Shown: positions 330 through 44,022 of the stretch, in pieces
How positions within the stretch are numbered: position 1 is the stretch's first letter
Layout: the number at the start of each line of letters is the position of its first letter
Assembly (NCBI GenBank): GCA_026395685.1
Contig: JAPLYG010000006.1
Location: forward strand, 4,943 to 68,942
Length of the DNA stretch: 64,000 bases
Source of the DNA: Candidatus Parcubacteria bacterium
GTDB taxonomy: Bacteria > Patescibacteriota > Patescibacteriia > CAIXNZ01
Direction: 5' to 3'
The notes under the pieces: model-generated
The model's input: only the letters and a program-made list of their open reading frames with translations
What the model was told of the DNA's origin: nothing
Database searches by the model: none
Position numbers and translations under genes: made by a program

Positions 330-902
330 TTATTGAGGAGAAAGCTTCAGAAAGCAAAGATTGTGTTTCCGGAGACAAGCTTTAATCTCCTCCATGGACT
401 TGGGGCCGAGGCCGTAAATCTGACGAAGCTCATTTTCATCAGCTATGGCCAGATCAAAGAGGCAAGTAATCCCCCAAAACTTTAGCCTTTTTGCCGTTCG
501 GCTGGACAGATTCAGCTCATCCAGGGGCTTAAAGGGATATTTCACCCGGGGGTACCCTGATCTGCGCAAAAAAATCCTTATACTATCTTCGCGCAGCAAA
601 ACCTGCGCAACTAACTTCTTTCCCCAAGGTGAATCAATTGCTACTCCTTGCCGAATTAACCAACGGCATCGCCTCAAAGCTTTTCTTTTGAGCTGACCAA
701 CATAGTTTCTGGAAATCTGAAGTTTTTCAGCGATTTCCTTGATTGACAAAGACTCGCAATCCAAGCCATAGTACAAGACAATGACTTGGCGCAGCTTGTA
801 GTCTAGCTGGCCCCAGATAACAGTGCGGGCTTCTTTCAAGAAAAGATTGTTAACTTGCAGATCAGCCCAAAAACCATCGAACCCAGTCTTTTTTTTCGTC
901 AT
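330..902 (-). CDS. Small transcription factor: sigma-70 region-4-like HTH fused to an RNA polymerase alpha-subunit C-terminal-domain-like (HhH) domain
   Basis: LSIKEIAEKLQISRNYVGQLKRKALRRCR matches the sigma70 region 4.2 pattern. The C-terminal stretch LDELNLSSRTAKRLK...LGPKSMEEIKACL matches the alpha-CTD pattern (DLELTVRSANCLK...LGKKSLTEIKDVL). The start was moved to the ATG at 902, which follows GGAGG. Confidence 0.55.
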   Translation of the reverse strand: MTKKKTGFDGFWADLQVNNLFLKEARTVIWGQLDYKLRQVIVLYYGLDCESLSIKEIAEKLQISRNYVGQLKRKALRRCRWLIRQGVAIDSPWGKKLVAQVLLREDSIRIFLRRSGYPRVKYPFKPLDELNLSSRTAKRLKFWGITCLFDLAIADENELRQIYGLGPKSMEEIKACLRKHNLCFLKLSPQ

Positions 903-1135
903 GTTAAACACCTCCATTCCCGATTTTATACATTATCTTAATTTGGCACAGATGTCAATGGGATATAGCCGTTAGTTTGTGGCTTATGGCAGCCGGTTTA
1001 GTCTATGGTATTTGGTTATTGGTATATGACTAAAGACCTAAAACTTACAACTAAACTGGCAGCCCAGACCACCAACTATAAACTAACACAAAAAAACAAC
1101 CCCGCGTCGCGAAGTTGTTTTTTATATAAGAAATA

Positions 1136-6084: not shown

Positions 6085-6202
6085 ATGAGGAATTACGCCC
6101 AAAAAACCAATAAACAAATGACACGATATCGTACTTCGAGTACGTTTAGAGGTAATGTTAAATTTTTGCAAAAGCCGGTGCCGAAGAACTTCTCCCAACA
6201 TC

Positions 6203-6330
6203 CAATCATCAATAATCAATCATCAAACAAATTTTAACCTCCAAAATCAAATTACCCAATATGTTTGGGATTCATTATTTATATATTAGATATTGTTTGA
6301 TTATTGAGATTTGATTATTGATTATTATCC
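6203..6330. repeat. Empty MITE-like palindromic element of the AATCAATAATCAA family
   Basis: Left arm caatcatcaataatcaatcatcaaacaaatttt and right arm gtttgattattgagatttgattattgattattatcc are inverted repeats. The same family brackets the four-helix-bundle gene at 61657. Confidence 0.55.
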
Positions 6331-6380
6331 AAGCAACCTCATATAACCTAATAAAACTTAATATAACGTCATACAACCTT

Positions 6381-7691
6381 ATGCAATACACCTACACTAC
6401 AAAAAAACTCCCCAAATCCCAGCTCGAAATCAATGTTACTGTGCTTCATGACGAACTGGCTCCTTTTTTAAAAAAAGCAGCTGAAGAAATTTCCCAACAG
6501 ACAAAAATCGAAGGGTTTCGTCCCGGCAAAGTACCTTACGAAGTATTAAAGCAAAGAATAGGCGAGGTAAAAATTTACGAAGAGGCGGCAATGATGGCTG
6601 TTGAAAAATCATACATTGAAATCGGGACCAAGGAAAAATTTGAACCCCTGGGCTCACCTAAGATTGATCTGGAAAAATTAGCGCCGGGGAATGATTTGAT
6701 TTATAAGGCAACTGTTGATTTAATTCCTGAAGTAAGGGTAGGAGACTTTAAGGCCATTAAAATTAAAGAGAAATTAATCAATATTACAAAAGAACAAATC
6801 GATAAAGTAGTTGATGAAGTCAGAGAAATGAGAGCAACTGAGGTCTTAGATAAAAAAGCAGTAGAAATGGGAGATAAAGTTGAACTAGATTTTGAAGTCT
6901 TGCGCGACAAAGTTCCGATCGACGGCGGGTCTCAAAAAAAATACCCCCTGGTTATCGGCACCGGTCAATTTATCCCGGGCTTTGAAGAAAATTTAGTCGG
7001 CTTAAAGACAGAGGAAGAAAAAGAATTTGAATTAACTTTTCCGGAAAAATATCATAATAAAAATCTGGCTGGCAAACCTGCAACCTTTAAAGTTAAAATC
7101 CTGGCTGTATATAAAAGAACTTTGCCTGAAGCTAATGATGACTTTGCCAAATCCCTGGGACAAGATACCATGGATAAACTGAAAGCTTCAATTGAACATA
7201 ATCTGGAGCACGAAGAACATCACAAGGAAGAAGAAAGAATCGAAATCGAAATGCTGGAAAAAATAATTGACAAATCAACCTTTGAAGAAATTCCTGATGT
7301 TTTGGTCACGGCTGAAACCAATAAAATGATTCAGGAAATGGAGGCTAACATTCTGCGCGAGGGTATGAAATTTGAAGATTATCTTAAACACCTGGGTAAA
7401 ACTCGCGATCAGCTAAAACTTGATTTTGTGCCTCAGGCGATTAAAAGAGTAAAAAGCGCTTTGCTAATCAGAAGTATTTTTTTAAGTGAAAAAATGGAAA
7501 TACCGGAACATGAAGTTGATGTCGAGCTTGAATCGCTGACTCATGCTTACCAGACTTATCCGGAAATGATAAAAAATATTCAAACGCCTCAATATCGGGA
7601 ATATGTCCGTAATATGGTCGGCAATCACAAAGTCATGAACCTATTAAAGGCAGCCTGCATTGAAAGAACAAACCCGGAACATAAATGTTAA
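6381..7691 (+). CDS. tig: Trigger factor
   Basis: EINVTV...KIEGFRPGKVPYEVLKQRIG is the trigger-factor N-domain signature, followed by a PPIase-like middle domain. Start taken at MQYTYTT, ATG at 6381. The tracked start at 6318 lies inside the palindromic repeat. Confidence 0.85.
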   Translation: MQYTYTTKKLPKSQLEINVTVLHDELAPFLKKAAEEISQQTKIEGFRPGKVPYEVLKQRIGEVKIYEEAAMMAVEKSYIEIGTKEKFEPLGSPKIDLEKLAPGNDLIYKATVDLIPEVRVGDFKAIKIKEKLINITKEQIDKVVDEVREMRATEVLDKKAVEMGDKVELDFEVLRDKVPIDGGSQKKYPLVIGTGQFIPGFEENLVGLKTEEEKEFELTFPEKYHNKNLAGKPATFKVKILAVYKRTLPEANDDFAKSLGQDTMDKLKASIEHNLEHEEHHKEEERIEIEMLEKIIDKSTFEEIPDVLVTAETNKMIQEMEANILREGMKFEDYLKHLGKTRDQLKLDFVPQAIKRVKSALLIRSIFLSEKMEIPEHEVDVELESLTHAYQTYPEMIKNIQTPQYREYVRNMVGNHKVMNLLKAACIERTNPEHKC

Positions 7692-7702
7692 AAAGAAAAG
7701 GG

Positions 7703-7730
7703 GACGCTAATTTACTGGCGTCTCTTTTTT
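7703..7730 (+). terminator. Rho-independent terminator of tig
   Basis: Hairpin gacgctaatttactggcgtc followed by TCTTTTTT. Confidence 0.7.
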
Positions 7731-7737
7731 GTCGGTG

Positions 7738-7850
7738 AACAGTGAATTGGTTAAGAGGCTGGTAGGTGATTGGGGTAAGTGTAAGGTGTTTCAGGGACTC
7801 AACACCTAACCATTACACTTACTAGCATCCAAACCCAAACACTTTGCACT
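7738..7850. repeat. ~100-nt imperfect-hairpin intergenic element (family H: GGTGAAyaGTGAA...GCTGGTAGGTG...CACTTACyAGCATCC)
   Basis: Shares start and end motifs with the copies at 8636, 8744, 11650, 36930 and 39556. Its arms are reverse complements of each other. Confidence 0.55.
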
Positions 7851-8014
7851 CTGGCTAATATTAGCCTCAACCTTGACAAAATACCATAATTGTGATACTA
7901 TAAGATGATTGCTCTTTAATAACTACAACATTTGATATCGCGGGAATTAGGCGGGCATTTAGCCCAGAGTCCGAAACTTTTGGTCGATTAACCGAAAAAA
8001 GAAGGAGACTGAAG

Positions 8015-8584
8015 ATGAAGAAAGGGATTTTGCTCTCATTGGTTCTGTTGGCTCTGACCATGTCCGCCGCAACCTGCGACGAAACGACAAACGGAAATAC
8101 TCAGTCCGGTCATCGCCCTGATCAGATCATTGTGCGGCTGGACAACGACACCATCACCGACCTCGTTATTGGCGACATGATTCCTCTGGTGAAATTCCAC
8201 GTCAGACCGACGACAGGCGGAATTCAAATCCTGTCTTTCAAGTTCGCTACTGTGGATTTCCCTCATCCCTACGAAGTCGGCTCCTGCGAATTGCAGGATG
8301 TTGACGGCAACAAACTTAACTACGGATCTACCGGTGGTTATTCTATCGAAGACCCCGATATCTGGCAATATACCGTCTACTTTGAAGAGAACCCCGAAGA
8401 CTACGGGGACATGTTCAACCCTGTTTACGTAGACGCTGTCGGACAATCTTTCATCCTGTCTTGCGATATCCTGTCGGAAAGGCCGATCGATATCGACTTA
8501 CTGGAAATTGATTACGACTCGAACGGCATCGAATACAAAATCGACCCGAACACCTCCCCGATTTTCGAAGTACACCTGGAGTAG
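8015..8584 (+). CDS. Lipoprotein, family member 1 of 3. GC-rich. Hypothetical.
   Basis: Signal peptide with a lipobox (LTMSAATC). AAGGAG Shine-Dalgarno sequence. GC is roughly 55% against a ~33% background. Shares the motif FKF...G....C.L.D..GNKLN with the 10144 gene. Confidence 0.6.
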   Translation: MKKGILLSLVLLALTMSAATCDETTNGNTQSGHRPDQIIVRLDNDTITDLVIGDMIPLVKFHVRPTTGGIQILSFKFATVDFPHPYEVGSCELQDVDGNKLNYGSTGGYSIEDPDIWQYTVYFEENPEDYGDMFNPVYVDAVGQSFILSCDILSERPIDIDLLEIDYDSNGIEYKIDPNTSPIFEVHLE

Positions 8585-8598
8585 TGTCTTTCTTCTCC

Positions 8599-8630
8599 CG
8601 GGCGCGAAAACAACATCGCGCCCTTTTTTT
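8599..8630 (+). terminator. Rho-independent terminator. Its hairpin is shared with two other genes.
   Basis: gggcgcgaaaacaacatcgcgccc followed by T8. The hairpin recurs at 9855 and 11626. Confidence 0.8.
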
Positions 8631-8635
8631 ATTAG

Positions 8636-8742
8636 TGCATGGTGTGAGGGTAAAGAGGCTAGTAGGGAATTAGGTTAAGTATTTTAACACTCTCACACAA
8701 AACCCTTCACTTACCAGCATCCTAACCATAACCACTTTTATT
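8636..8742. repeat. Family H hairpin element, copy 2
   Basis: ...taaagaggctagtaggg...ttaggttaagtattttaacactctcacac...cacttaccagcatcc. Confidence 0.5.
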
Positions 8743-8743
8743 A

Positions 8744-8862
8744 GTGAATGGTGGGGGTAAAGAGGCTGGTAGGTGTTAATTGTTTAGGTTAAGTATTTTA
8801 ACACTCTCTCACAACACCCTTCACTTACCAGCATCCCAACCATAACCATAACCCTAACCTTA
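8744..8862. repeat. Family H hairpin element, copy 3, tandem to copy 2
   Basis: ...taaagaggctggtaggtg...ttaggttaagtattttaacactctctcac...cacttaccagcatcc. About 85% identical to copy 2. Confidence 0.5.
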
Positions 8863-9019
8863 TAGCTAATATTAGCCCCTCTCTTGACATTTTATCCAAA
8901 ACGTGCTATACTTTTATATTGCTGAACCTTAACAATAATGGTTAATAACCTTTGAAAATACGTCTTTTTGAGGCAAAAATCAACCAAAAAACGAAACACC
9001 TAAACAAAAGGAGTTCTAG

Positions 9020-9841
9020 ATGAAGAAAGCCATGATCGCTGTGTTCTGCCTGATGTTCGCCCTGTTCGCCAACGCCTGCATGTATGCCGGCGATGAAGGC
9101 GACAACAACAACAACATCACCATCAACGACGGCGATACCGTCGTCTACGAGACCGGCGCCCTGTACCACTTCACGGCCTACGCGGCCTATGGACAGGATG
9201 CCTGGCTCCAGATCCAGAACCTCGAAACCGACGAGTGGAACAGCGAGCTCATCACCGTAACGACCGAGACCATGTACCGATTCCTGGAACCGGGCGAGTA
9301 CCGGATCTGGATTTCGGGCGTCAATGGCGCTTTCGACTGGTACGGCCACATTTCCGTCCAGGAAAACGTGGTCACCGACGTCTACGCTGAGTTTCACGAG
9401 TACACCATGGTCAACATCTGGATGGCCAGCAACGCCAGCACGCCGAGCGGTATGAGTCCGATCGGCAACTATACCCAGGTGTTGAAGTTCGACCTGGCTC
9501 ACGACTACCCGGAAGCCATCTCGATTAACGACCTAGGATTTACCCTTTGGGCAAGTCCCACAGTCGTCATCGAAAGCGCAACCCTCTGGGTCGTCCGCGA
9601 AAACGGCTGGGAAGAGGTTGCGACCTCCGTGAATCTGGGAGATAACTTCTTCTACCTGGATCTCGGAAGGTTTGTCCCTCTTTATCCCGGCGTGACGCAG
9701 TTCATGCTCACCGCCGAGATCACCGGGGCTTATAACGGCGATGTTCTGCAGGCCGAAATGACGATGGCCGGCTACACCCCCGACATCTTCACCAGAGGCA
9801 ACTTCCAGTCCTTCGCCATCGGCAACATTCTCACCTTCTAA
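9020..9841 (+). CDS. Lipoprotein, family member 2. GC-rich. Hypothetical.
   Basis: Lipobox LFANAC. AAAGGAG Shine-Dalgarno sequence. GC is roughly 58%. Ends at the shared terminator. Confidence 0.6.
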   Translation: MKKAMIAVFCLMFALFANACMYAGDEGDNNNNITINDGDTVVYETGALYHFTAYAAYGQDAWLQIQNLETDEWNSELITVTTETMYRFLEPGEYRIWISGVNGAFDWYGHISVQENVVTDVYAEFHEYTMVNIWMASNASTPSGMSPIGNYTQVLKFDLAHDYPEAISINDLGFTLWASPTVVIESATLWVVRENGWEEVATSVNLGDNFFYLDLGRFVPLYPGVTQFMLTAEITGAYNGDVLQAEMTMAGYTPDIFTRGNFQSFAIGNILTF

Positions 9842-9854
9842 ACAAACCCGCACA

Positions 9855-9887
9855 GGGCGCGAATACAACATCGCGCCCTTTTTTTTA
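9855..9887 (+). terminator. Rho-independent terminator, shared hairpin
   Basis: gggcgcgaatacaacatcgcgccc followed by T9. Confidence 0.8.
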
Positions 9888-10143
9888 TTCGTTAAACGAT
9901 ATTTGGTACCTGCCTGTCGGCAGGTCGAAGTTCGTTACGTTTTTAGTCAATCGTTTTTTTGTCACTTTTAACGTTAACCTATTAACGTAACGGAAAACGA
10001 ATCTAATCTTAGCCATTGACTTATCCTTCTAAATATTCTATATTTATATATAACTGTTTTTTGAAAAAATTAGCCTTGGGCTATAAAGATAGATGGAACA
10101 AAGCAATGAATAAAAACCCTCAGATGAAAACAAGGAGCTTCAG

Positions 10144-11601
10144 ATGAAGAAACTAATTTTGACGGTTCTTATCACGATTACGTTTTTTGCGGCTTCGTGT
10201 ACCTACAACTATAATGATAACAATTCCTACCTAAAGGACAGCAAGATCAACATTACTCTGTCCAACGATTCACCGACTGATGAAATTCCGCTTGGGGATC
10301 AGGTTCTGGCAGTTTTTCTGGTTAACACTAAAAACGCTGCTCAAATCCATGGATTGGAGCTGGATATCACAGACAACTACGACGACCCGCTGGATTTACA
10401 GTTCGTGAATTCCCTCTGGATTGAAGATGGCAATGGCAATCTCATCTATGAAGCCCAGAATATCAGTGACGGTTTTGACTTCTGGGGAGTATATAATATC
10501 CCTATCGGCGAGTCTGCCATCATAGTCAAGGGGCATATTACCTTTGGCGAGGACTATAACTCTCAGTGGAGTCCTCGGCCAGAATTCCAGGTGCTGGTCA
10601 ACGGCATCTATGGATCCGAAAAGATCTTACCCCTGTTTGGTCTGGCTAGTAATGCGATGATCCCCAAATTTCAGGGAATAACTTCGGTGTTTTCAGAATT
10701 AACTTCAGATTCCCCAATAGGTGATCTGGCACCGGGACAGGAAATTACTCTCTTTAAATTTAAACTTTGGACTGAAAATGGGAGCTACCTCTTCTGGGAT
10801 CCATTCTTTACTTTTACCAATTTCAATGGCCAATTGACTAATTGTTTTCTTCTGGACGAACAGGGTAACAAACTGAATGATACTTTTAGCATTGATTCGG
10901 TAACTAACCATATAAAATTGGGAAGAAATGATTCGGAAACACCCTGGGCATTAATTACCGCTTCAGGACAAACTTTTGCCCTCAGTTGCGACGTTTCGAC
11001 AAATAGCCCCAGCGAATACCTCAATTTTGGCCTTGCTGGAGCTAAATGGGAATCTGCCGATATTAACAACTGGCTATCAATACCGACGGAATATGCACAA
11101 GGTAACACCTTACACGTCGTGCAAGATCGAAAAATTTTTTTCAATCTTGCTGCTGATACCCCTCAACAAATTTTACCCGGCAATACTGTAACTATAATGA
11201 AGTTCTCAGTATATACCGGGTTCGGCGATATAAAGTTGTACTTGCTCGAATTTGCCTATAGTAATTACCAGGCTGGCAGTTTTTCTAACTGTAGGGTCCA
11301 AGACGAAAACGGCCAAAAAATAAACAAATTCGTCAATGGTTTTCGCCCACCCGGGACTAATATAATATACGAGGCTTATTTTTTTGGTCCTTCAACTGGC
11401 GTTTACCCTGGAGACAGTTATCCATTTACGATGATAACACCACAAGCAAAAACTTTCTTTTTATCGTGCAATATGGGCAACTTACCAGGGTATTCAACTA
11501 ACGTTGACCTTTCATTTATAAACTATTACTTCAGGACGGATTTGAATTATGAAATTTTCCCTCCAACTAATCCGATTCTGACAACCACAGTCCACCAGTG
11601 A
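10144..11601 (+). CDS. Lipoprotein, family member 3. It contains an internally duplicated domain. Hypothetical.
   Basis: Lipobox FAASC. Internal repeats FKFKLWTENGSYLFW...NCFLLDEQGNKLND and MKFSVYTGFGDIKLY...NCRVQDENGQKINK. Ends at the shared terminator. Confidence 0.6.
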   Translation: MKKLILTVLITITFFAASCTYNYNDNNSYLKDSKINITLSNDSPTDEIPLGDQVLAVFLVNTKNAAQIHGLELDITDNYDDPLDLQFVNSLWIEDGNGNLIYEAQNISDGFDFWGVYNIPIGESAIIVKGHITFGEDYNSQWSPRPEFQVLVNGIYGSEKILPLFGLASNAMIPKFQGITSVFSELTSDSPIGDLAPGQEITLFKFKLWTENGSYLFWDPFFTFTNFNGQLTNCFLLDEQGNKLNDTFSIDSVTNHIKLGRNDSETPWALITASGQTFALSCDVSTNSPSEYLNFGLAGAKWESADINNWLSIPTEYAQGNTLHVVQDRKIFFNLAADTPQQILPGNTVTIMKFSVYTGFGDIKLYLLEFAYSNYQAGSFSNCRVQDENGQKINKFVNGFRPPGTNIIYEAYFFGPSTGVYPGDSYPFTMITPQAKTFFLSCNMGNLPGYSTNVDLSFINYYFRTDLNYEIFPPTNPILTTTVHQ

Positions 11602-11625
11602 TCGAGGACAATCCCACAACCGCAT

Positions 11626-11655
11626 GGGCGCGAATACAACATCGCGCCCTTTTTT
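11626..11655 (+). terminator. Rho-independent terminator, shared hairpin
   Basis: gggcgcgaatacaacatcgcgccc followed by T6. Confidence 0.8.
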
Positions 11656-11762
11656 ATTTGGTGAACAGTGAAAAGGTAAAGATGCTGGTAGGTGGGAGGA
11701 GTAAGGGTAATGTCAATAAAGACCCGATACCTTACCATGTCACTTACTAGCATCCTAACCAA
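11650..11762. repeat. Family H hairpin element, copy 4
   Basis: ggtgaacagtgaaaaggtaaagatgctggtaggtg...cacttactagcatcctaacc. Confidence 0.5.
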
Positions 11763-11808
11763 AACACTTTACCTTTTGATTTACCGAAATAACTGCTAAA
11801 ATATAATC

Positions 11809-12312
11809 ATGAAAATGGCCATCGTCTCCGACTCCCACGATAACCTGCCTAATATTAAAAAGGCAATCAATTATATTAATAAACAAAAAATCTCCGTAAT
11901 GATCCATTGCGGTGATGTTTGCGCTCCGGTTATTTTGGGCGAATTTGCCAAGCTTTTCAAGGGCAAAGAAATTCATGTAGCTAAGGGAAATGTTGACGGC
12001 GATATTGAAGGCTTTAAAGCAATGGCAAGAAAATATCCCAAAATAATTTATCACGGCAATACGGGAAAAGTGGACATTGACAAGCTCTCAATTACTTTTT
12101 GCCACGAACCGTTTTTAGCCAAGAAAATGGCAGAATCTCAAAAATATGATTTTGTTTTTCACGGGCATACGCATAAGCCCTGGCAGGAAAAAGTCGGCAA
12201 AACGACAATTTTAAATCCCGGGACATTGGCAGGGCTTTTTAATAAAGCGACTTTTGCCATATTTGATACTGAGACAAAAAAAGCCCAACTTATTCTTTTG
12301 GAACAAATCTAA
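11809..12312 (+). CDS. Metallophosphoesterase of the YfcE/MJ0936 family
   Basis: The motifs DSHDN, HCGD, GNVDG and GHTHKP are in the order expected for the calcineurin-like phosphoesterase fold. Confidence 0.75.
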   Translation: MKMAIVSDSHDNLPNIKKAINYINKQKISVMIHCGDVCAPVILGEFAKLFKGKEIHVAKGNVDGDIEGFKAMARKYPKIIYHGNTGKVDIDKLSITFCHEPFLAKKMAESQKYDFVFHGHTHKPWQEKVGKTTILNPGTLAGLFNKATFAIFDTETKKAQLILLEQI

Positions 12313-12711: not shown

Positions 12712-13164
12712 ATGGAAAATATCCTAATAATCACCGGACAGCTTATATTAGCCGTTATTTTGGGCGGAATCATCGGGATTGAAAGAGAACGCATTGGCAA
12801 ACCAGCCGGCTCTCGCACTTATGCCTTGATCGCGATGGGCTCTACTTTATTAACAATCCTATCAATTCAGGGTTTCAGTAGTTATGCCAATTTTACACCC
12901 ACGGCATTAATTTCTCCCATTATTACCGGCTTAGGCTTTTTAGGCGCCGGGGTAATTATTTTCCACAAAGAGAAACTAGAGGGACTCACAACTGCCGCTG
13001 CCCTTTGGGCCATAGCCTCAGTTGGCATTGCCATTGGAATAGGGTGGTATTTAATTGCTGTTATTGCGGCAGCTTTAATTTTCCTTATCCTTTATATTGT
13101 CAGAAAAATCGAATTCAACGCTAAAAAGAAAAATACTCTCTGGGATTTATTTGACCGCAAATAA
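12712..13164 (+). CDS. MgtC/SapB family membrane protein
   Basis: ILAVILGGIIGIERE...R.YAL is the MgtC N-terminal signature. Four to five TM helices. Confidence 0.75.
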   Translation: MENILIITGQLILAVILGGIIGIERERIGKPAGSRTYALIAMGSTLLTILSIQGFSSYANFTPTALISPIITGLGFLGAGVIIFHKEKLEGLTTAAALWAIASVGIAIGIGWYLIAVIAAALIFLILYIVRKIEFNAKKKNTLWDLFDRK

Positions 13165-20972: not shown

Positions 20973-21103
20973 TTACCAATTATCAATAATCAATATTCAA
21001 ACAGCACCTAAACTTTAAAAGCAAATAACTAAAAAATTTGGAAATTTGGAGTTAGGTAATTTAAATTTGTTTGATGATTGATTCTTGTTTATTGATTATT
21101 TTT
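20973..21103. repeat. Empty MITE-like element, AATCAATAATCAA family
   Basis: Inverted arms ttaccaattatcaataatcaatattcaaacag and gtttgatgattgattcttgtttattgattatttt. Confidence 0.5.
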
Positions 21104-24410: not shown

Positions 24411-24731
24411 ATGGCTCTGAAGCAGTATCTGATTCGTTTGGCGATCATGTTCGCGGTTATCGTCGGTCTAGGCGCCGTGGTGATGGCCTTGCCGAACCAG
24501 GACAAGGCTGTCCACAAGCACATCATGAAACCGCTCCTCGTGGTGGATTCGCCCAAGCCGATTGGCCAGGGCCTCTACGTGGTGGTGGTTAAGCAGGGAA
24601 ACCTCAAAGTCCCGATGCTGACCATGAACCGCAACCTGACCGCTGGAAAGGTCGCCCAGATCGTGCGTTACGACCTCGACGGCAGCCACCCGGCCATCGA
24701 TCTGATGAACTTCACGTTCATGGCCGAGTAG
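24411..24731 (+). CDS. GC-rich small N-terminally anchored protein. Hypothetical.
   Basis: GC is roughly 58%. GGAGGAAC Shine-Dalgarno sequence. A TM helix LIRLAIMFAVIVGLGAVVMAL. Its own terminator at 24747-24776. Confidence 0.5.
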   Translation: MALKQYLIRLAIMFAVIVGLGAVVMALPNQDKAVHKHIMKPLLVVDSPKPIGQGLYVVVVKQGNLKVPMLTMNRNLTAGKVAQIVRYDLDGSHPAIDLMNFTFMAE

Positions 24732-27942: not shown

Positions 27943-27969
27943 TCTGGAAGGGAAGCAGAAAACAGCATC

Positions 27970-28050
27970 TGCTCCCCGCCTAAATTGAGTCTTTTTCAAA
28001 GGGAAGAAGATTCAAAAGTAGGTTAAGTTCTTTAAATATCTATAACGTTT
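27970..28050 (+). repeat. Cassette junction core, copy 1
   Basis: ctccccgcctaaattgagtctttttcaaagggaagaagattcaaaagtaggttaagttctttaaa. Confidence 0.6.
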
Positions 28051-28071: not shown

Positions 28072-28746
28072 ATGAAGAAGATGATGATGGCGGCCATAGT
28101 TGTTTGCCTGTTGGCTACTTCGGCTAAGGCTGGCCAGCTTCGTCTGGCTGGTTACTACGATGTCAGCAGGGAACAGAGAACCATCACGGTTGACGGTTTC
28201 TCGCAGCTGTCCACAAAGTGGAGCACCTGGGGGTTCGTGGACTTTTACACGACCCAGGGCAACCAGAAGGATGCGGCTGACAATGCTGATGTCCAGACAT
28301 TCTGCGGCAAAGGCACTCTGAGCTTTGTTCTCTGGCAGATCGATCAGCACAACTCTGTCAAACTGACTGGCGAGCTGATTGACTCCAGCTGGGCTAGCTC
28401 TGAGTTTCGTCCTGGCCTGCAGTGGGTGGTTGGCGGCGACTGGGGATTTGCGAACTTCAAAGTTCTGCCAGTGACTTTTGAACTGGTGGCGCCGGAAGAT
28501 CCGCTTCCTCAGGTTGGTGCCATTGGTGGAGCCTGGTATGTTAATGCCAGTGACAAGATGTTCTGGGAGGGCTTCTGGGAAATGACCTATACCTATGAGG
28601 ATCAGACTCGGTATTATCCGGTTATCGGAGAGACCCAGCTGGGATATCGTCTGACTGAAAAGCTCAATATCCTCGTAGAGTATCGGTACAACAACTTCGT
28701 GGAAGATGATCACGGCCTCGGACTCGGGGCTGAGATCGTCTTCTGA
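28072..28746 (+). CDS. Cassette ORF 2. Secreted beta-barrel outer-membrane-protein-like protein (OmpW/OmpA-barrel-like).
   Basis: Signal peptide MKKMMMAAIVVCLLATSAKA. Alternating hydrophobic strands. C-terminal ...GAEIVF ending in Phe. GC is roughly 55%. Confidence 0.5.
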   Translation: MKKMMMAAIVVCLLATSAKAGQLRLAGYYDVSREQRTITVDGFSQLSTKWSTWGFVDFYTTQGNQKDAADNADVQTFCGKGTLSFVLWQIDQHNSVKLTGELIDSSWASSEFRPGLQWVVGGDWGFANFKVLPVTFELVAPEDPLPQVGAIGGAWYVNASDKMFWEGFWEMTYTYEDQTRYYPVIGETQLGYRLTEKLNILVEYRYNNFVEDDHGLGLGAEIVF

Positions 28747-28773
28747 CATCAGGGGAGCGGACTAAGGATAGTC

Positions 28774-28894
28774 TGCTCCCCACCTAAATTGAGTTTTTTT
28801 CCAAGAGAAGAAGATTCAAAAGTAGGTTATGTTCTTTAAAGATAAATACCCCCCTCTAACAGTCCTGCAATGCGGGACAAAAGGAGCCAGAATA
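28774..28894 (+). repeat. Cassette junction core plus leader, copy 2
   Basis: ctccccacctaaattgagtttttttccaagagaagaagattcaaaagtaggttatgttctttaaagataaatacccccctctaacagtcctgcaatgcgggacaaaaggag. Confidence 0.6.
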
Positions 28895-29296
28895 ATGATG
28901 AACCCCGAGAATTTCCTGGTTGAAAGCAATGGCCGTTTGTCCGTCAACCCCGAGTTTAAGGCCGAGTTTGCCAGTATAGAAGAGGCAGTCGGTTACCTGT
29001 GCAGCGTCCTGGTTTATTTCCATGAAGAACTCTTCTGTGGGAATAACATCTACGACGGGAATGCTAAGCATTCCAGGAAAACTCCTCATCCGAAAAAAGA
29101 CTGGGAGTTTTGTCACAATGAAATTTCGAAGGGTAGCTTGCTGACCGGGGTTGCGCTTGATGCGATTTTTCAAGATTTCGGCGGATATCAGTCTTTTCGT
29201 AAGTTGCCTTTTGTTAAGACCCTGTTTGGGTTGAGGGGATCGAGATATATCAGCGTGAAGTATTCGGAGATGAAAGAATTCTCCGGAAAAAAATAA
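28895..29296 (+). CDS. Cassette ORF 3. Hypothetical protein.
   Basis: Start at the ATG at 28895, after the conserved leader and Shine-Dalgarno sequence. The 5' part of the tracked ORF (28829-28894) is the leader. Confidence 0.5.
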   Translation: MMNPENFLVESNGRLSVNPEFKAEFASIEEAVGYLCSVLVYFHEELFCGNNIYDGNAKHSRKTPHPKKDWEFCHNEISKGSLLTGVALDAIFQDFGGYQSFRKLPFVKTLFGLRGSRYISVKYSEMKEFSGKK

Positions 29297-29322
29297 TAAA
29301 AAGGGGAGAGATTGCTAAAAGC

Positions 29323-29385
29323 AACCTCCCCGCCTAAATTGAGTCTTTTTCCAAGGGAAGAAGCTTCAAAAGTAGGTTAAGTTCA
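29323..29385 (+). repeat. Cassette junction core, copy 3 (terminal)
   Basis: ctccccgcctaaattgagtctttttccaagggaagaagcttcaaaagtaggttaagttc. Confidence 0.6.
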
Positions 29386-29427
29386 TAAAATTAAACAATC
29401 TTAATTACATTATTAATTATAAATAAT

Positions 29428-30123
29428 ATGTATAAAATTTATAACCATACTTCAGCAAAAATGAAAGAGATTGGCCAGCAGTCGGTTGACTTGATTTTTA
29501 CTTCGCCTCCATATAACATCAGCACCAGCTACGGCAAATATCGGGATAATTTGAGTCTCAAAGCGTACCAAAAATTTCTGCAGTCAGTTATCGGCGAATG
29601 CGCCAGAGTAATTAAAAAAGACGGTAAATTAATTATTGAAGTCGCTGACAGTGTTTTGATTGGCTCAAAATATCTGCAGCTTGCAGCGCTGATTGCCAAA
29701 TATTGCCTGGCTAAAGATTTTGTTTTGGTTACCAGATACATTAACTTTATTAAAACCAGCAATAAAGTGGAATTGGCTGATCATAATATGACGCCTGACT
29801 TTATTAATAAAGGCGATACGCATTCCAACTGTCATCAGCTTTTGATTTTTGTCAAAAAGCCTAAACAGCATGAATTTAAAGATGAAGTTTTATACATTAA
29901 TTATCTGGATTCCAAAGAGCACCCTTGCCCGACGCCGAAAGCCATGCTGACTTTTATTTTAAACAGATATTTTAAGAAAGGCTATAAAGTTTTAGACCCT
30001 TTTAGCGGTACGGCTAATCTTGGCGCGGAAGTCTTGAAACGGGGTGGGGATTTCTATGGTTATGAAATAAATAGCGGTTTCTGTAAAATTGCTGAGCAAA
30101 AGTTAAAATCATTTAAATATTAA
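29428..30123 (+). CDS. DNA methyltransferase of the N4/N6 type, beta class, circularly permuted. Orphan.
   Basis: SPPY (motif IV) near the N-terminus. DPFSGTANLG (motif I, F.G.G) near the C-terminus. No restriction endonuclease gene is adjacent. Confidence 0.7.
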   Translation: MYKIYNHTSAKMKEIGQQSVDLIFTSPPYNISTSYGKYRDNLSLKAYQKFLQSVIGECARVIKKDGKLIIEVADSVLIGSKYLQLAALIAKYCLAKDFVLVTRYINFIKTSNKVELADHNMTPDFINKGDTHSNCHQLLIFVKKPKQHEFKDEVLYINYLDSKEHPCPTPKAMLTFILNRYFKKGYKVLDPFSGTANLGAEVLKRGGDFYGYEINSGFCKIAEQKLKSFKY

Positions 30124-34403: not shown

Positions 34404-34430
34404 TTTTTTAAATTAAAATGTAGATATATT

Positions 34431-35000
34431 TAAGTCTAAAGTATAAAGGCTAAAGTCTAAGTTTTAGGAAGTTTTTTTGTTAAGTCTAAAGTATAAAGGC
34501 TAAAGTCTAAGTTTTAGGAAGTTTTTTTGTTAAGTCTAAAGTATAAAGGCTAAAGTCTAAGTTTTGGAAGTTTTTATTAAATTTAGGCTTTAGTCTTTTC
34601 TTTGTTTTCTATGGTTAAAATTGATTTTGAAAATATCAATGTTAGTTCATGAGCTTCTTGCCATAATTTTTGGCAATCATTTTTAAGTTCGGGAATTGCT
34701 TTAGAAATTAAATCCAGCCAATATTTAGATTCCTTTGCTTCCTTTTTACAAATATATAATTTATTTTTAAAATCACGCTTTGAACATGCGCCATTTGCTT
34801 CGCAGTAATTAGCTCCAACGCTGGTTACAGCTCGCACCAATTGGCTGATGAGAGGAAGAGTAATTACTGTTTTGGGGATTATACTTGCAAAAATGATAAT
34901 TTCTTCGCTGAATTTTTTTGTTCTTTCTTCTAGGTTATTAGGCATTTTAATATAAATTCATTAATTTAGCCTTTAGAACTTAGCCTTTAGACTTTGAATT
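34431..35000. mobile_element. MITE-like element carrying a four-helix-bundle gene (GTCTAAAG/CTTTAGAC inverted-repeat family). The left end has 3 x 50-bp tandem repeats.
   Basis: Three tandem copies of taagtctaaagtataaaggctaaagtctaagttttaggaagtttttttgt at 34431-34580. The inverted arm ...tagcctttagaacttagcctttagactt is at 34964-35000. Confidence 0.55.
34583..34945 (-). CDS. Four-helix-bundle protein (23S rRNA intervening-sequence protein family, TIGR02436-like)
   Basis: The motif YCEANGACSKRDFKNKLYICKKEAKESKYWLDL is characteristic of the family. The protein is about 85% identical to the ORF at 49751. Confidence 0.7.
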   Translation of the reverse strand: MPNNLEERTKKFSEEIIIFASIIPKTVITLPLISQLVRAVTSVGANYCEANGACSKRDFKNKLYICKKEAKESKYWLDLISKAIPELKNDCQKLWQEAHELTLIFSKSILTIENKEKTKA

Positions 35001-36918: not shown

Positions 36919-36929
36919 AATTTTATAGG

Positions 36930-37045
36930 TGAATAGTGAATGGGGAATGATGCTGGTAAGTGCAAAGTATTTTGGTATGGTGCATCTAATCACTTAACCA
37001 AAACACCAGATACCTTCTAGCCTCCTAACCATTACCCATTTTACC
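36930..37045. repeat. Family H hairpin element, copy 5 (degenerate)
   Basis: ggtgaatagtgaatggggaatgatgctggtaagtg ... cacttaaccaaaacacc...cctaacc. Confidence 0.4.
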
Positions 37046-37236
37046 TCGTTTAATAATAGAATCTTACCAAACCAGCAGTATAAAATCAAGATATAAAATC
37101 AATCGGCAAAGAAGTTAAGTTTATCCACAAAACCTATTGCTATTATTAAAGTAATTGTTATACTTATTAACAAGAAAGATCTTTAAGCGAGTTTTTAAAT
37201 TATATCTAAACAGCCCTGGGCAGTTATTTTGCTTCC

Positions 37237-37939: not shown

Positions 37940-39553
37940 ATGGGAAAATGGCAAACATTAGCATTACGAGTCAAAAGACTGATTAGCCATAATCAGTTTA
38001 TTTTATATTTGGGAGTTTTTATCTTTTCTTTTTTGCTCTATCTTATGATTCAGTCCAGCCCGACATTTTTGGATCCGGATTCATTTTACCATTTAAAAAT
38101 GATTAAGCTGATTTCTGAGCAGGGGCCGATTATAAATTTCCCCTGGCTGCAATTTACCGTGCTGAAGGATTTTTACATTGATCATCATTTTTTATACCAT
38201 GTGTTGGGTGTGCCGTTTATTTGGCTTTTGGGCGATTTTAGCGGCTATAAATTTTACACCATTTTGCTTAACAGCCTTTTTGTGGTGCTCTGTTATGCGC
38301 TCTTAAAAAAAGAAGGCATTAAGTATCCGTCAATTTATGCTTTTTTAATTCTAACAACCAGTGGTTTGTTGTTTCGCATCTCACTTGCTAAAGCAATTTC
38401 CAGCTCTCTGATTTTAAGCTTTTTAACAATATATTGTCTTTTTAGCCGTAAAAAGTGGCTGCTTTATTTCATCTCCTGGCTTTATGTCTGGACATACGGC
38501 GGCTTTTTACTGGCCTGGGTTATCACCGGATTTTATTGTTTAAGCCAGGGATTTTATTCTGCCTGGATAGAGCCAGGTAGTCAGGAAAATAAGCACGATC
38601 ACAAGCTTGCCCGCTTTTTAGTTGCAACTTTTAGCAAGGATAATTTGCAGCTGATGATCGCCACAATTAGCGGTGTTATTACCGGGATTATTGTCAATCC
38701 TTATTTTCCGCGCAATATTAAGTTTGTCTGGCAGCAATTGGTGCAAATAGGCATTATTAATTACCGGGGCGCTGTTAATGTGGGCGGTGAATGGTATCCG
38801 ATAAAAGCTACGGAGTTAATTACTTCCTTAGGCGGTACTTTTATTCTGGCAATTTTTGCTTTGGCAGTATTTTTTGCCTTTATAAAAAAACAGGAAAAGC
38901 ATACAATATTTTTCTTTTTTAGCAGTTTGTTTTTTTTCGCTTTGACCTTGAAATCCAGGCGCTATGTGGAATACTTTGTCCCATATTTAATATTCTTTAT
39001 AGCTTATAGCCTTAATTACCTTTTATCCGCCTTTAACTGGAAAAAAATAATCAGGGAACTAAAAGAAGCCAGCCGGATTATCCCGATACTATTTTATCTT
39101 ACTGCTATTTTGGTGCTTGTCTTTGTGCCGGCCATCAATATCAAAGATGTATATCATAATTATGTGTCGTTTAAAAGAGGCTATCAGTTTGATACTTATG
39201 CCGGCGTTTCCCAATATTTAAAGGAAAATTCTCAGCCAGGTGAAATAATAATGCATACTGATTGGGATGATTTTCCCCATCTTTTTTATCACAATTCCCA
39301 GAATTATTATATTGTGGGGCTTGATCCGACTTTTATGTATAATTATGACCGCAAGCTTTATCAGCTTTACGCGGATATTACTATGGCGAAAATAAGCGAT
39401 AATTTATCCGAGCTTATTAAGGATAATTTTAAGGCCAAATATTTTATCGTGCAAAAGGGCCGGGAAGCCCTGCGCCAAAATTTGCAAAAGGACTCGAATT
39501 TTATTAAGGTATATGAAGATAAGGATGCTTGGTTGTATATGATTAAATATTGA
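37940..39553 (+). CDS. GT-C-fold integral-membrane glycosyltransferase, possibly oligosaccharyltransferase/STT3-AglB-like
   Basis: About 13 TM helices. DPDSFYH sits in the first extracytoplasmic loop, in the position of the acidic catalytic motif of GT-C enzymes. Confidence 0.45.
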   Translation: MGKWQTLALRVKRLISHNQFILYLGVFIFSFLLYLMIQSSPTFLDPDSFYHLKMIKLISEQGPIINFPWLQFTVLKDFYIDHHFLYHVLGVPFIWLLGDFSGYKFYTILLNSLFVVLCYALLKKEGIKYPSIYAFLILTTSGLLFRISLAKAISSSLILSFLTIYCLFSRKKWLLYFISWLYVWTYGGFLLAWVITGFYCLSQGFYSAWIEPGSQENKHDHKLARFLVATFSKDNLQLMIATISGVITGIIVNPYFPRNIKFVWQQLVQIGIINYRGAVNVGGEWYPIKATELITSLGGTFILAIFALAVFFAFIKKQEKHTIFFFFSSLFFFALTLKSRRYVEYFVPYLIFFIAYSLNYLLSAFNWKKIIRELKEASRIIPILFYLTAILVLVFVPAINIKDVYHNYVSFKRGYQFDTYAGVSQYLKENSQPGEIIMHTDWDDFPHLFYHNSQNYYIVGLDPTFMYNYDRKLYQLYADITMAKISDNLSELIKDNFKAKYFIVQKGREALRQNLQKDSNFIKVYEDKDAWLYMIKY

Positions 39554-39555
39554 AT

Positions 39556-39745
39556 GGGTTATGGTAAGGATACTGGTAAGTAAATGGCGTTAATTACTTA
39601 ACCTAAGCACATAACACATACTAGCATCATTACCAACTCACTTTTCACTAGTAAATGAGGTTATGGTAAGGATGCTGGTAAGTGATATGGTAAAGTGTTG
39701 GGTGTTTACATTTTCTACTTACCATAGCTCTAGAATCTACCAGCT
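39556..39745. repeat. Family H hairpin elements, two tandem degenerate copies
   Basis: ggttatggtaaggatactggtaagta...ctagcatcattacc and gttatggtaaggatgctggtaagtg...cttaccatagc. Confidence 0.4.
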
Positions 39746-39776
39746 TTTTTACCAAATCACATAATACTTTTTGTCT

Positions 39777-40499
39777 ATGAAGGTACTAATTGTTTTGCCA
39801 GCATATAATGAGGCTAAGATAATCCGCGAAAACACGGAGAAGCTTTTGGATTTTGTGCAGAAAAATTTATTGGACGACCAGATCCAGATTGTGATTGCTG
39901 ATAATAATTCAAAAGATCAGACCAGCGCAATCGGCAAAGAGCTGGCAGCCAAGTCTGATCAGATAGCTTATGAATTTGTGGCTGAGCAGGGCAAGGGCCA
40001 TGCAGTTTTATCGCCCTGGCTGAAGATGGAGGAGTTTTTTGATATATTTATCTTTATGGATGCTGACCTGGCAACTGATTTGCAGGATTTGCCTTATTTA
40101 ATTTTTGGCATAAAGCAAGGCTTTGATCTGGTGATCGGATCGCGCCGTCTTTCCGAATCTAAAGTTAATAAATCCATTAGCCGGCATATTTTTTCCTCGT
40201 GTTACCATTGGGTATTAAAAATATTATTAGGTACAAAAATAAATGATTTGCCCTGCGGTTTCAAGTCAATCAATCGCCGCGCGCTTAAAGACTTGGTTCC
40301 TTTGATAAAGGATCGTTCCTGGTTTTTTGACAGCGAACTTGTTTATCTGGCGGAAAAAAAAGGCTATAAAATAAAAGAGATTCCTGTAAAATGGCAGGAA
40401 CCTCGGCAAGGAGATGACAAAAGCCGGGTTAATCTCTGGAAAGTATCCTGGCTATATTTAAAGCGGGCTGTCCAGCTAAAGTTCAGAAAAATCAGTTAA
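39777..40499 (+). CDS. GT2 polyprenol-phosphate glycosyltransferase (Dpm1/GtrB-like)
   Basis: VLPAYNEA...IVIADNNSKD..., a DAD motif (FMDADLA), then later SR...F. Confidence 0.7.
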   Translation: MKVLIVLPAYNEAKIIRENTEKLLDFVQKNLLDDQIQIVIADNNSKDQTSAIGKELAAKSDQIAYEFVAEQGKGHAVLSPWLKMEEFFDIFIFMDADLATDLQDLPYLIFGIKQGFDLVIGSRRLSESKVNKSISRHIFSSCYHWVLKILLGTKINDLPCGFKSINRRALKDLVPLIKDRSWFFDSELVYLAEKKGYKIKEIPVKWQEPRQGDDKSRVNLWKVSWLYLKRAVQLKFRKIS

Positions 40500-44018: not shown

Positions 44019-44022
44019 AAAT

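Follow-up and report, generated by a model that had tools for sequence, protein, structure and literature searches.

Why should three neighbouring genes of a Parcubacteria bacterium, each opening with MKK and soon reaching a cysteine, end in almost the same terminator hairpin, and why should two of them be so rich in GC? An earlier note on this DNA had proposed, as one explanation, a modular unit of gene plus terminator, inserted repeatedly or spread by gene conversion, which would make the genes a variable surface-lipoprotein family of non-native base composition. Parcubacteria are thought to live attached to other cells, and to our knowledge almost nothing has been learned about their surface proteins. 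Our analysis of the window, by which we mean the whole 64-kb stretch of DNA, indicates that the locus is probably a tandem array of three genes, each transcribed on its own, that encode lipid-anchored surface beta-sandwich proteins, all of one small undescribed family. It is likewise probable, in our judgement, that the array is modular and that the surface-lipoprotein family it represents is new, evolves fast and occupies a conserved variable slot of one Parcubacteria clade.

The three ORFs, all starting with MKK on the + strand, were recovered as g1 (8015-8584; 189 aa, one domain copy), g2 (9020-9841; 273 aa, an N-terminal beta domain followed by a diverged copy of the family domain) and g3 (10144-11601; 485 aa, three domain copies). 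The trigger factor gene tig (6318-7691, +) forms the conserved left border of the slot and a YfcE-like metallophosphoesterase gene (11809-12312, +) its conserved right border; the array lies about 4 kb from rnpA-dnaA, dnaA itself being 4.5 kb away. Each of the three genes has a predicted promoter of its own. The palindrome GCTAATATTAGCC precedes a sigma-70-like TTGACA-17-TACTAT promoter with TG upstream of g1 (7853-7901, +), where a Shine-Dalgarno sequence, AAGGAG, follows at 8002-8007; the same palindrome precedes a TTGACA-17-TATACT promoter with TG upstream of g2 (8864-8912, +), and a degenerate form, TCTAATCTTAGCC, precedes TTGACT-17-TATATT upstream of g3 (10002-10044, +).

At the other end of each gene, 15-24 nt past the stop codon, stands the sequence GGGCGCGAA(A/T)ACAACATCGCGCCC with a T-run. 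Copy 1 (8600-8630, +) reads GGGCGCGA-AAACAACA-TCGCGCCC plus T7, and copies 2 (9854-9886, +) and 3 (11626-11655, +) read GGGCGCGA-ATACAACA-TCGCGCCC plus T8 and T6, respectively. The near-identity of the terminators described earlier was thus confirmed, as was the one-base a/t variant: copies 2 and 3 are identical and copy 1 differs by a single loop base. The folded terminator hairpin of tig (7700-7725, +) has a different sequence, GGGGACGC...GCGTCTC plus a T-run. The units are separated by a family of imperfect palindromes of about 110 nt, family H, with one copy after tig (7731-7850, +; repeat families D4/D9/D11 and alignment, fold z = -3.1), two tandem, 88% identical copies after g1 (8631-8858, +; H1 8631-8742, H2 8740-8858) and another after g3 (11657-11772, +; repeats and alignment, fold z = -5.9). 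The earlier claim of such hairpins after two of the genes therefore stands for g1 and g3, with the copy after tig to be added. A second, ACG-rich hairpin type takes the place of family H after g2 (9888-9999, +) and also follows the g2-like or last forward gene in the relatives L035, L001 and L066.

The plainest reading would be that nothing special has happened here, a generic genome-wide terminator having come to stand behind three unrelated proteins. The motif GGGCGCGAAWACAACATCGCGCCC occurs exactly three times in the 64-kb window, at 8600, 9855 and 11626, always on the + strand, with zero matches expected in shuffled sequence even when 3 mismatches are allowed. Absent from the window's other 60 kb and from all flanks of 67 further loci, this terminator type is confined to the slot in the 911 kb searched (window plus 67 loci), though copies may yet exist in parts of the source genome beyond these 64 kb. 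Within the slot of relatives it also follows tig and unrelated small genes, a point in favour of the generic reading, so that gene and terminator do not make up one inseparable unit; of the modular unit proposed earlier, the succession of promoter, Shine-Dalgarno sequence, ORF and shared terminator holds, and its inseparability does not.

The three copies ranked as the top three of our terminator scan and fold into 8-9 bp hairpins on the sense strand, each with 7 GC pairs, a loop of 8 nt and a T-run of 6-8. By this signature, together with their location after the stop codon, they are putative intrinsic terminators. Comparison across genomes revealed compensatory double changes at 2 of the 8 stem pairs (5 distinct sequences only), a G.U intermediate in the stem of L066, and pairing in 100% of the stem cells of these 5 distinct sequences, as against 35-70% in slid controls. 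The hairpin, including the loop AAACAACA, is conserved across genomes in which the adjacent coding regions are just 25-40% identical.

What remains of the generic reading depends on whether the proteins are related. BLASTP finds g1 and g3 homologous (E 3e-11), g1 matching all three g3 repeats, and finds no similarity of g2 to either. The g2 copy has diverged beyond the reach of BLASTP, and its relatedness is seen with profiles only: the C-terminal domain of the g2 family matches a 28-domain profile with an hhalign probability of 92.7% (E 4.4e-7). Pairwise and profile-profile comparisons together thus establish paralogy at the domain level, as had been supposed. The family domain, a predicted beta-sandwich of about 150 aa usually with two conserved cysteines, occupies aa 27-185 of g1, aa 21-172, 172-313 and 313-480 of g3 and, in diverged form, aa 130-257 of g2 (nt 9407-9790). 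The F.F....G....C.L.D..GNKLN-type domain noticed earlier in all three proteins is thus shared, although its literal motif (F.F..C.L.D..GNKLN) can be read only in g1 and in two of the g3 repeats (2 and 3), not in g2; the NC.L and F.L.CD motifs lost in g2 are retained by the g2-like proteins of L035 and L066. With g1-g3 homology clear, g2 joined by profile and the terminator locus-specific, the generic reading is largely refuted and we give it almost no credence.

A profile search of 1.84e9 cluster representatives returned 14 proteins at E<1e-10, and Pfam held no family for g1, g2 or g3 at E<=0.1. Full-length members carry an MKK signal, a cysteine and 1-3 domains. MKK followed by a hydrophobic stretch, as called for by a lipoprotein signal with a basic n-region and an h-region of 10-18 residues, is found in g1, g2 and g3 and in all 16 full-length relatives inspected, and the cysteine falls at residue 19-21 in g1-g3 and at residue 16-24 across 19 family members. 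When a PROSITE PS51257-like lipobox rule ([LVI..][ASTVI..][GAS]-C at the end of the h-region) was applied, 11 of the 19 satisfied it. Among the three genes credited earlier with a lipobox, g3 has one by this rule (FAAS-C), and g1 (AATC) and g2 (ANAC) are each one residue off. From their signal sequences, all three are lipoprotein-like and candidate SPase II substrates. The AF2 model of the family domain is all-beta (pLDDT 75), that of g2 poor (pLDDT 57). Foldseek matched the domain model to generic beta-sandwiches with a best E of 2e-4, yet at TM 0.26-0.47 and 10-14% identity, the best PDB matches being cohesins, integrin calf/thigh domains, the diphtheria toxin R domain and pilins. With fold matches this generic, at TM below 0.47, and a g2 model of such low confidence, it is a guess that the lipoproteins serve in binding or adhesion.

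In all nine contexts with visible flanking genes, all in one Parcubacteria clade, the family has tig on one side and the metallophosphoesterase gene on the other; tblastn places tig orthologues of 66-77% identity immediately before the slot in relatives, and on these Pfam recognizes Trigger_N/FKBP_C/Trigger_C. Family members occupy the slot in L001/L066, L035, L057, L060/61, L063, L064, L065 and the JGI contig of P0004; L004 and L034 have an empty slot of 207 bp, and L003 and L005 carry other genes in it. Gene content thus ranges from none to several, and copy number and domain number differ between related genomes, which bears out the view of a variable family. Between genomes the lipoproteins are 25-54% identical, whereas tig is 65-88% and the metallophosphoesterase 72-87% identical.

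The unit thus consists of a sigma-70-like extended -10 promoter, a strong Shine-Dalgarno sequence, the MKK/hydrophobic/Cys signal, 1-3 domains and a terminator whose 8-bp GC-stem hairpin, with its loop and T-run, would end the transcript. We suggest that such units evolve by birth and death: they would duplicate in tandem, be lost, gain or lose domains and at times give way to unrelated genes. The non-coding modules that recur in the array (terminator, hairpin and promoter) could supply homology for unequal crossing-over or conversion, and would for this reason be more alike within than between genomes. Family-H modules do show similarities of 0.69-0.88 within genomes and 0.5-0.75 between genomes, a comparison that involves few module copies and is consistent with homogenization by recombination. 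As two old terminator variants exist in the clade, however, a genome could have three terminators of one type by chance in about 1 case in 4. The coding parts change several times as fast as the housekeeping genes beside them, which is what diversifying selection on exposed proteins would be expected to produce. Of the repeated insertion or conversion proposed earlier, duplication or conversion thus fits the data; insertion from outside finds no phage, plasmid or recombinase signal.

Base composition poses the second question. The GC content of g1, g2 and g3 is 49.3, 56.4 and 41.4%, lower than the 55, 58 and 43% first estimated, in a window of 39%; GC3 is 0.63, 0.80 and 0.44, against about 0.37 in the host. 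Other GC-rich secreted ORFans also occur in the window. Most family members have GC3 of 0.52-0.80 in hosts of 0.26-0.42, and of the homologues that six further AT-rich genomes carry at this locus, most are GC3-rich (0.52-0.71); three members, g3, P0015 and the L066 g2-like gene, are host-like at 0.40-0.44. One could suppose that g1, g2 and the other GC-rich members are foreign cassettes, imported recently and repeatedly from GC-richer donors. The gap in GC3 between g1 or g2 and the host speaks for this, as do the spread of GC3 at orthologous positions (0.40-0.80, wide even between sister genomes) and P0012 (L062), a member on a short 52%-GC contig without the flanking genes, whose GC-rich flanks indicate that a GC-rich pool exists. 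The g3-like tree, moreover, is incongruent with the species tree, which leaves room for allele exchange. Against import, the g2-like tree, ((W,L063),(Pav,L035)), agrees with that of tig, the family was seen, P0012 apart, in this clade at one locus only, and the GC-rich stretch stops exactly at the ORF borders, with promoters, Shine-Dalgarno sequences and terminators native and conserved. Furthermore, no phage or plasmid homologues were found, nor any integrase, transposase or recombinase among the window ORFs scanned. Recent import is not supported, since most relatives share the high GC3 and the g2-like genes branch as the species do, and we consider it unlikely. In this family GC-richness recurs, and the non-native composition first proposed finds no support as a sign of recent import.

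Two further explanations of the composition were weighed. Were the genes very highly expressed, their position near oriC (dnaA at 4.5 kb), their consensus-like promoters and AAGGAG would suit them, and codon and mRNA optimization could favour the C-ending (NNC) codons that dominate the shift (AAC 0.90, TTC 0.84, TAC 0.72, ATC 0.69). G-ending codons (AAG, GAG, CAG, CTG) are also raised, however; ribosomal protein genes of relatives are low in GC3 (S16 and L34 of one lowest at 0.22, L34 of another 0.30); and g3, P0015 and the L066 g2-like gene share the regulatory build yet have host-like GC3. We therefore regard expression as an improbable cause. Alternatively, the slot may be a recombination hot spot in which GC-biased conversion, or cassette exchange via the palindrome or hairpins, homogenizes the modules and raises GC3 to 0.8, an idea we hold to be doubtful, if slightly less so. 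Where the process lapsed, genes would decay to host composition (g3, P0015, the L066 g2-like gene), and the other GC-rich secreted ORFans of the window could be further targets. The general idea of recombination-driven GC evolution in bacteria has been put forward (Lassalle et al. 2015, PMC4450053). If true, the locus would show it with unusual clarity on the scale of single genes, and in an episymbiotic lineage.

Another reading would make the palindrome (8-8-8), the H hairpins or both the crossover sites of integron- or dif-like cassette exchange, the slot being the array. The palindrome is locus-specific with a loop conserved across genomes, unneeded for a plain terminator; there are n+1 hairpin modules for n genes, plus an H-H junction without a gene, and the same modules enclose unrelated genes. 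Yet every copy has the T-run, sense-strand orientation and spacing from the stop codon of an intrinsic terminator, H elements are also found in empty slots and, elsewhere in the window (36.9 and 39.6 kb), between ordinary genes, and each gene has its own promoter. Inspection of the H and terminator elements revealed no attC R''/R' cores (RYYYAAC / GTTRRRY), and no IntI was present among the ORFs scanned and no recombinase in the relatives' loci. Exchange at such sites is thus very unlikely, and the array is better read as separately transcribed genes diversifying by birth and death.

So interpreted, the locus defines a small undescribed lipoprotein family with a fixed chromosomal address, variable gene and domain number and several-fold faster divergence. 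This is behaviour expected of molecules that contact hosts, phages or competitors, and makes the family a candidate for studies of attachment and recognition. It also offers test cases for why individual genes remain rich in GC over long periods when the reduced genome around them is AT-rich, and why one terminator hairpin is conserved, loop included, at one locus. If the ordinary explanation is true, the value would lie chiefly in annotation, as a new family and a recognizable variable locus.

Several known systems resemble parts of this locus. Like integron cassette arrays, it strings together units of one gene each, has an imperfect hairpin behind every unit and varies in content between strains, but each gene has a promoter and the hairpins also occur outside the array. 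As for diversity-generating retroelements, no template/variable repeat pair involves g1-g3 and no reverse transcriptase was found among the ORFs scanned, which included some of the small ones. Family H recalls REP/BIME and Correia-like elements, which are dispersed intergenic palindromic elements, in its length, its several, sometimes tandem copies and their greater similarity within genomes; unlike them, it has no identified terminal inverted repeats with target-site duplication, no transposase partner and no Rfam match. The all-beta sandwich of the domain model resembles cohesin-like and receptor-binding domains, with no relationship at the sequence level; a TM above about 0.5 would mark a significant superposition on a cohesin-like fold, and this model, of pLDDT 75, reaches 0.26-0.47 with a best E of 2e-4. 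The terminator is like known intrinsic terminators in its GC-rich 8-9 bp stem, 8-nt loop, T6-8 tract and compensatory changes, and unlike them in that the exact hairpin, loop included, is conserved across genomes and confined to one locus.

A further parallel is with Mycoplasma Vsp/Vlp/Vsa and Borrelia Vmp/Mlp, multigene families through which bacteria that lack a wall or depend on a host vary their surface lipoproteins. The array differs from these in having no sequence or Pfam relationship to them, in being composed of GC-rich islands, and in extending its conserved frame to the 3' terminator. Nor was a switching device found: no invertible promoter, homopolymer/SSR tract or silent cassettes in or around the genes, and no recombinase among the ORFs scanned. 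It shares with them a cluster of paralogous lipoprotein genes in a bacterium that has a small genome and depends on partners, copy number that varies between strains, and a conserved signal-peptide and regulatory frame around divergent mature parts built of repeated domains. The family is undescribed, yet of a familiar kind.

The three genes under study, g1 (8015-8584), g2 (9020-9841) and g3 (10144-11601), lie on the (+) strand at the positions assigned to them in the earlier note, and encode proteins identical to NTZ49_01130, NTZ49_01135 and NTZ49_01140, all annotated as "hypothetical proteins" in a Candidatus Parcubacteria metagenome-assembled genome. They fill the interval, hereafter the slot, between the trigger factor gene (tig; 6318-7691) on the left and a YfcE-like metallophosphoesterase gene (11809-12312) on the right. 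Beyond the latter follow MgtC, Sua5, rnpA, dnaA and dnaN, which places the array close to the replication origin. Each protein starts with MKK, continues with a hydrophobic segment and has a Cys at residue 19-21; by a PROSITE-like lipobox rule g3 fits, and g1 (AAT-C) and g2 (ANA-C) are one residue off each. Every gene has its own sigma-70-like promoter (7873-7901, 8884-8912 and 10016-10044) and is preceded by an AAGGAG ribosome-binding site. The palindrome GCTAATATTAGCC or a near copy of it is found just upstream of the -35 box of g1 (7853-7866) and g2 (8864-8877), in degenerate form before g3 (10002-10014), and inside the MgtC gene (12740-12753). Matches with no more than two mismatches number 9 against 2.6 expected, and the palindrome may be a shared operator.

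The proposed paralogy of the three genes was confirmed, by BLASTP for g1 and g3 and by profile comparison for g2. In BLASTP, g1 matches each third of g3 (best E 3e-11, 27% identity), so that g1 corresponds to a single copy of a domain of ~150 aa and g3 to three. The same program returned nothing for g2 against either g1 or g3; two Cys-containing motifs of the domain, ..NC.L.. and F.L.CD., are still present in the g2-like proteins of loci L035 and L066 of related genomes, and a g2-family profile aligns in register over 120 columns with a 28-domain g1/g3 profile (hhalign probability 92.7%, E 4.4e-7; E 0.02 with only seven domains in the g1/g3 profile). Taken together, the BLASTP match, the motifs and the profile match show the domain to be common to all three genes, with an additional N-terminal beta domain in g2. 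AlphaFold models the g1 domain as all-beta (pLDDT 75), and the PDB matches of this model, namely cohesins, integrin calf/thigh domains, the diphtheria-toxin receptor-binding domain and pilins (TM only 0.26-0.47), are generic sandwiches. The AF2 model of g2, built from 2 sequences, reached a pLDDT of 57, too poor for structure search. No Pfam family was matched by g1, g2 or g3, and the distant profile matches, large surface proteins with fn3, SLH or peptidoglycan-binding parts, indicate only a "surface beta-sandwich".

Word-indexed homologue searches returned one relative for g3, one for g2 and none for g1; a full HMMER profile search was needed before the family became visible, and yielded 14 proteins at E<1e-10 among 1.84 billion cluster representatives. 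Full-length members carry the MKK-plus-Cys signal and one, two or three domains. Genomic contexts were fetched for members P0002, P0004, P0006, P0007, P0008, P0009, P0012, P0014, P0015 and P0016, two of these contigs being too short for flanks, and additionally for 54 loci around metallophosphoesterase homologues. In every context that shows flanks, the family members were found between tig and the metallophosphoesterase gene. The slot holds a single g2-like gene in the JGI contig of P0004; a g1-like and then a g2-like gene in L063; a two-domain member, a g2-like gene, at least one more gene, a g3-like gene and a reverse-strand trypsin-like lipoprotein in L066 and L001, which belong to one Lac Pavin genome; a Cys-rich lipoprotein, a g2-like gene and a trypsin-like gene in L035; an unrelated 312-aa secreted protein and then a three-domain member in L057; a two-domain member followed by an unrelated 239-aa gene in L060 or by two unrelated small genes in L064; and a single one-domain member in L065. 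It is empty in L004 and L034, where 207 bp contain only a terminator and an H-like hairpin (see below), and is occupied by other genes, an IS200-like transposase among them, in L003 and L005. The order g1-like, g2-like, g3-like recurs, and in Patescibacteria further removed the border genes adjoin each other or have an endonuclease IV gene between them. From these arrangements we conclude that the slot is an old, clade-specific variable locus. The transposase-like ORF of L005 (2216-2665 (-); MRIRHLNHSVYQVSYHLVWGTKYRRK...) is of the IS200/IS605 type as judged by sequence motif alone. The trypsin-like (S1) lipoprotein genes, which are GC-rich, lie on the opposite strand in L001 (1715-2911 (-)) and L035 (8479-9690 (-)); in the former an in-frame stop separates a 74-aa signal part from a 316-aa protease part.

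Between genomes, identity amounts to 65-88% for tig, 72-87% for the metallophosphoesterase and 25-54% for lipoproteins at corresponding positions. The g2-like proteins group as (window, L063) and (Lac Pavin, L035), the same grouping as that given by tig, which points to vertical descent at a very high rate of divergence. The g3-like proteins depart from the species grouping (Lac Pavin and L057 are 54% identical, versus 41% for the window and Lac Pavin); this could reflect accelerated change in the AT-shifted g3 of the window or an exchange of alleles.

The near-identical terminator hairpin said to end each gene was readily recovered. There are exactly three copies of the 24-nt motif GGGCGCGAAWACAACATCGCGCCC in the 64 kb, one per stop codon and on the sense strand (8600, 9855 and 11626), 15-24 nt past the stop and followed by T6-T8; shuffled sequence gave no match even with three mismatches allowed. 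In a terminator scan the three copies were the best terminator-like sites of the first 20 kb, and they fold as predicted. The exact pattern had 0 hits in 185,579 species genomes, a set from which the source genome is absent, and the hairpin family was found at the same locus in six other genomes. The L063 copy, GGGCGCGA-AAACAACA-TCGCGCCC, is letter-identical to the one after g1. Other versions are GGGGCGCGG-ATACAACA-TCGCGCCC in L064; GGACGCGG-AAACAACA-CCGCGTCC, twice, and GGACGCGA-AAACAATA-TCGCGTCC, after tig, in L035; GGGACGCG-AAACAAAA-CGCGTCCC in L001; GGGGACGCGA-ATACAACA-TCGCGTCCC in L066; and GGACGCGG-AAACAGCA-CCGCGTC and GGGGCGCGA-CGACGA-TCGCGCCCC in L057. L066 also holds a hybrid (6300-6330; GGGGCGCGA-AAACAACA-TCGCGTCCC) that joins the 5' arm of one variant to the 3' arm of the other with one G.U pair, the expected intermediate of a compensatory G-C to A-U change between genomes. 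Across eight aligned copies, both sides have changed in 2 of the 8 stem pairs with all cells paired, against 35-70% of cells in slid controls. In L059, L060 (two identical copies), L064 and L065 this role falls to a second type of hairpin, CCGGGAGCGCAC...GTGC.CTCCCGG.

Both types are confined to the slot in the 911 kb searched (the window and 67 loci), and they also stand 3' of unrelated slot genes: tig in L035, the 312-aa gene in L057, a 157-aa gene in L064 and the 239-aa gene in L060. Within the reach of this search, then, the hairpin is not a genome-wide generic motif; it is a property of the locus and is not tied to the lipoprotein family. The alternative named in the earlier note, a generic terminator following proteins with no homology, is largely contradicted on both counts; of its proposal that gene and terminator form one modular unit, the modular build stands, and the fixed pairing is contradicted by the hairpins after unrelated genes. 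Position, strand and T-tract make termination the obvious putative function, and the conservation of the loop exceeds what termination needs.

Imperfect hairpins of ~110 nt (family H) lie 3' of tig, g1 (two tandem copies) and g3, in agreement with their reported presence after two of the three genes; the hairpin after g2 is of another, ACG-rich kind. In a permissive Rfam scan, 7600-11900 had chance-level matches only. Further family-H copies occur between ordinary genes, a single one at 36925-37050, downstream of a YebC-like gene, and a tandem pair at 39555-39760, between genes 37940-39553 and 39771-40499; family H is thus a dispersed element that is not restricted to the lipoprotein locus. 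Strong concerted evolution, suggested by terminator identity within the genome, is a reading that we have softened, since two old variants and the G.U intermediate coexist in single genomes (L063, L057, L066); the likeness of all three terminators in the window therefore speaks only modestly for homogenisation. The loop variant ATACAACA common to the g2 and g3 terminators, and family-H similarities of 0.69-0.88 within genomes and about 0.5-0.75 between them, point the same way.

The GC contents first estimated for the genes were a few points too high, and the contrast with the window (39% GC, background GC3 ~0.34-0.45) is real: 49.3% (GC3 0.63) for g1, 56.4% (0.80) for g2 and 41.4% (0.44) for g3. 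Non-native composition as a sign of insertion from outside is unsupported, because GC-richness is a recurrent family trait in AT-rich hosts, with GC3 values of 0.71 in P0002, 0.70 in the L035 g2-like gene, 0.65 in P0008 and P0016, 0.64 in P0009, 0.62 in P0007, 0.59 in the L063 g2-like gene and in P0006 (genome GC3 ~0.26), and 0.53 in P0014; g3 (0.44), P0015 (0.41) and the L066 g2-like gene (0.40) are host-like. The GC-rich stretch ends at the ORF borders, and the codon shift is mostly to C-ending codons, with G-ending ones also up. An assembly chimera was ruled out, as GC-rich ORFs flanked by AT-rich modules recur in independent assemblies from different projects. Translational selection is disfavoured: in the relatives the lowest GC3 (0.22-0.30) is that of ribosomal protein genes, so high GC3 is not this clade's signature of high expression. 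Nor is it the remnant of a single ancient import, the orthologues being far past synonymous saturation. High GC3 is continually restored by some process, and there are three candidates: selection acting on the mRNAs of these genes, conversion with a GC bias at a recombining locus, an idea put forward in general form by Lassalle et al. 2015 (PMC4450053), and repeated import of alleles from GC-richer relatives; P0012 sits on a 52%-GC contig.

At least five further GC-rich ORFan genes for secreted or membrane proteins (GC3 0.54-0.83) lie in the window, at 24411-24731 (+), 28072-28746 (+), 28829-29296 (+), 42545-43126 (+) and 51302-52138 (-), so that the phenomenon is wider than the tig-metallophosphoesterase locus. 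They are monocistronic, each with its own promoter-like site, a strong terminator different from the slot hairpin, and a predicted signal peptide or TM segment, and none matches Pfam; 42545-43126 has a lipobox (LSQAC), and the C-terminus of 28072-28746 (...AEIVF) resembles that of a beta-barrel protein. A 77-nt intergenic module, in copies 82-90% identical (27968-28044, 28772-28848 and 29322-29398) and each preceded by a GGGGAG...CTCCCC hairpin, brackets the genes at 28.1-29.3 kb, beside a DNA methyltransferase gene (29428-30123), and makes up a second small array of the same build as that of g1-g3. Other repeats include AT-rich intergenic palindromes (CCAATCATCAATAATCAATCATCAAAC ... GTTTGATTATTGA..GATTATTGATTATT) before tig and other genes (6202-6330, 20976-21100, 58779-58812 and 61604-62099), and three paralogous genes for proteins of the 23S-rRNA-intervening-sequence type (34583-34945 (-), with a match to Pfam PF05635, 49751-50113 (-) and 61657-62025 (-)), embedded in ~300-nt repeated regions and adjoined by 50-nt tandem repeats of TTAAGTCTAAAG-like units (34430-34579 and 49687-49768). 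The stretches 43185-46109 (-) and 46273-48228 (-) hold a run of six to eight small paralogues that share signal peptides and, at the C-terminus, a conserved membrane segment. Six small ones lie at intervals of 366-432 nt (repeat family D2), and Pfam T4SS_pilin is matched by the 462-aa gene at 46840-48228. A 195-aa ORF at 330-917 (-), of 45% GC, combines sigma-70 region-4 and RNA polymerase alpha C-terminal-domain matches (Pfam E ~1e-11 each).

Among the 27 larger ORFs of the window a Pfam scan found no integrase, transposase or reverse transcriptase, and tblastn searches of phages and plasmids gave no match. DGR, integron and phase-variation readings were rejected, as the defining parts of all three are missing from the repeats and the ORFs scanned. 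The region is best explained as a tandem array of modular build, whose genes encode an undescribed, fast-evolving family of surface lipoproteins at a variable locus conserved in a Parcubacteria clade, with conserved terminator, hairpin and promoter modules at its borders and between its genes. From the anchoring signal, fold class and evolutionary behaviour an adhesin or recognition function is predicted. Two features single the array out: GC-richness that persists at the scale of single genes, and a terminator that is specific to the locus and conserved in its loop.
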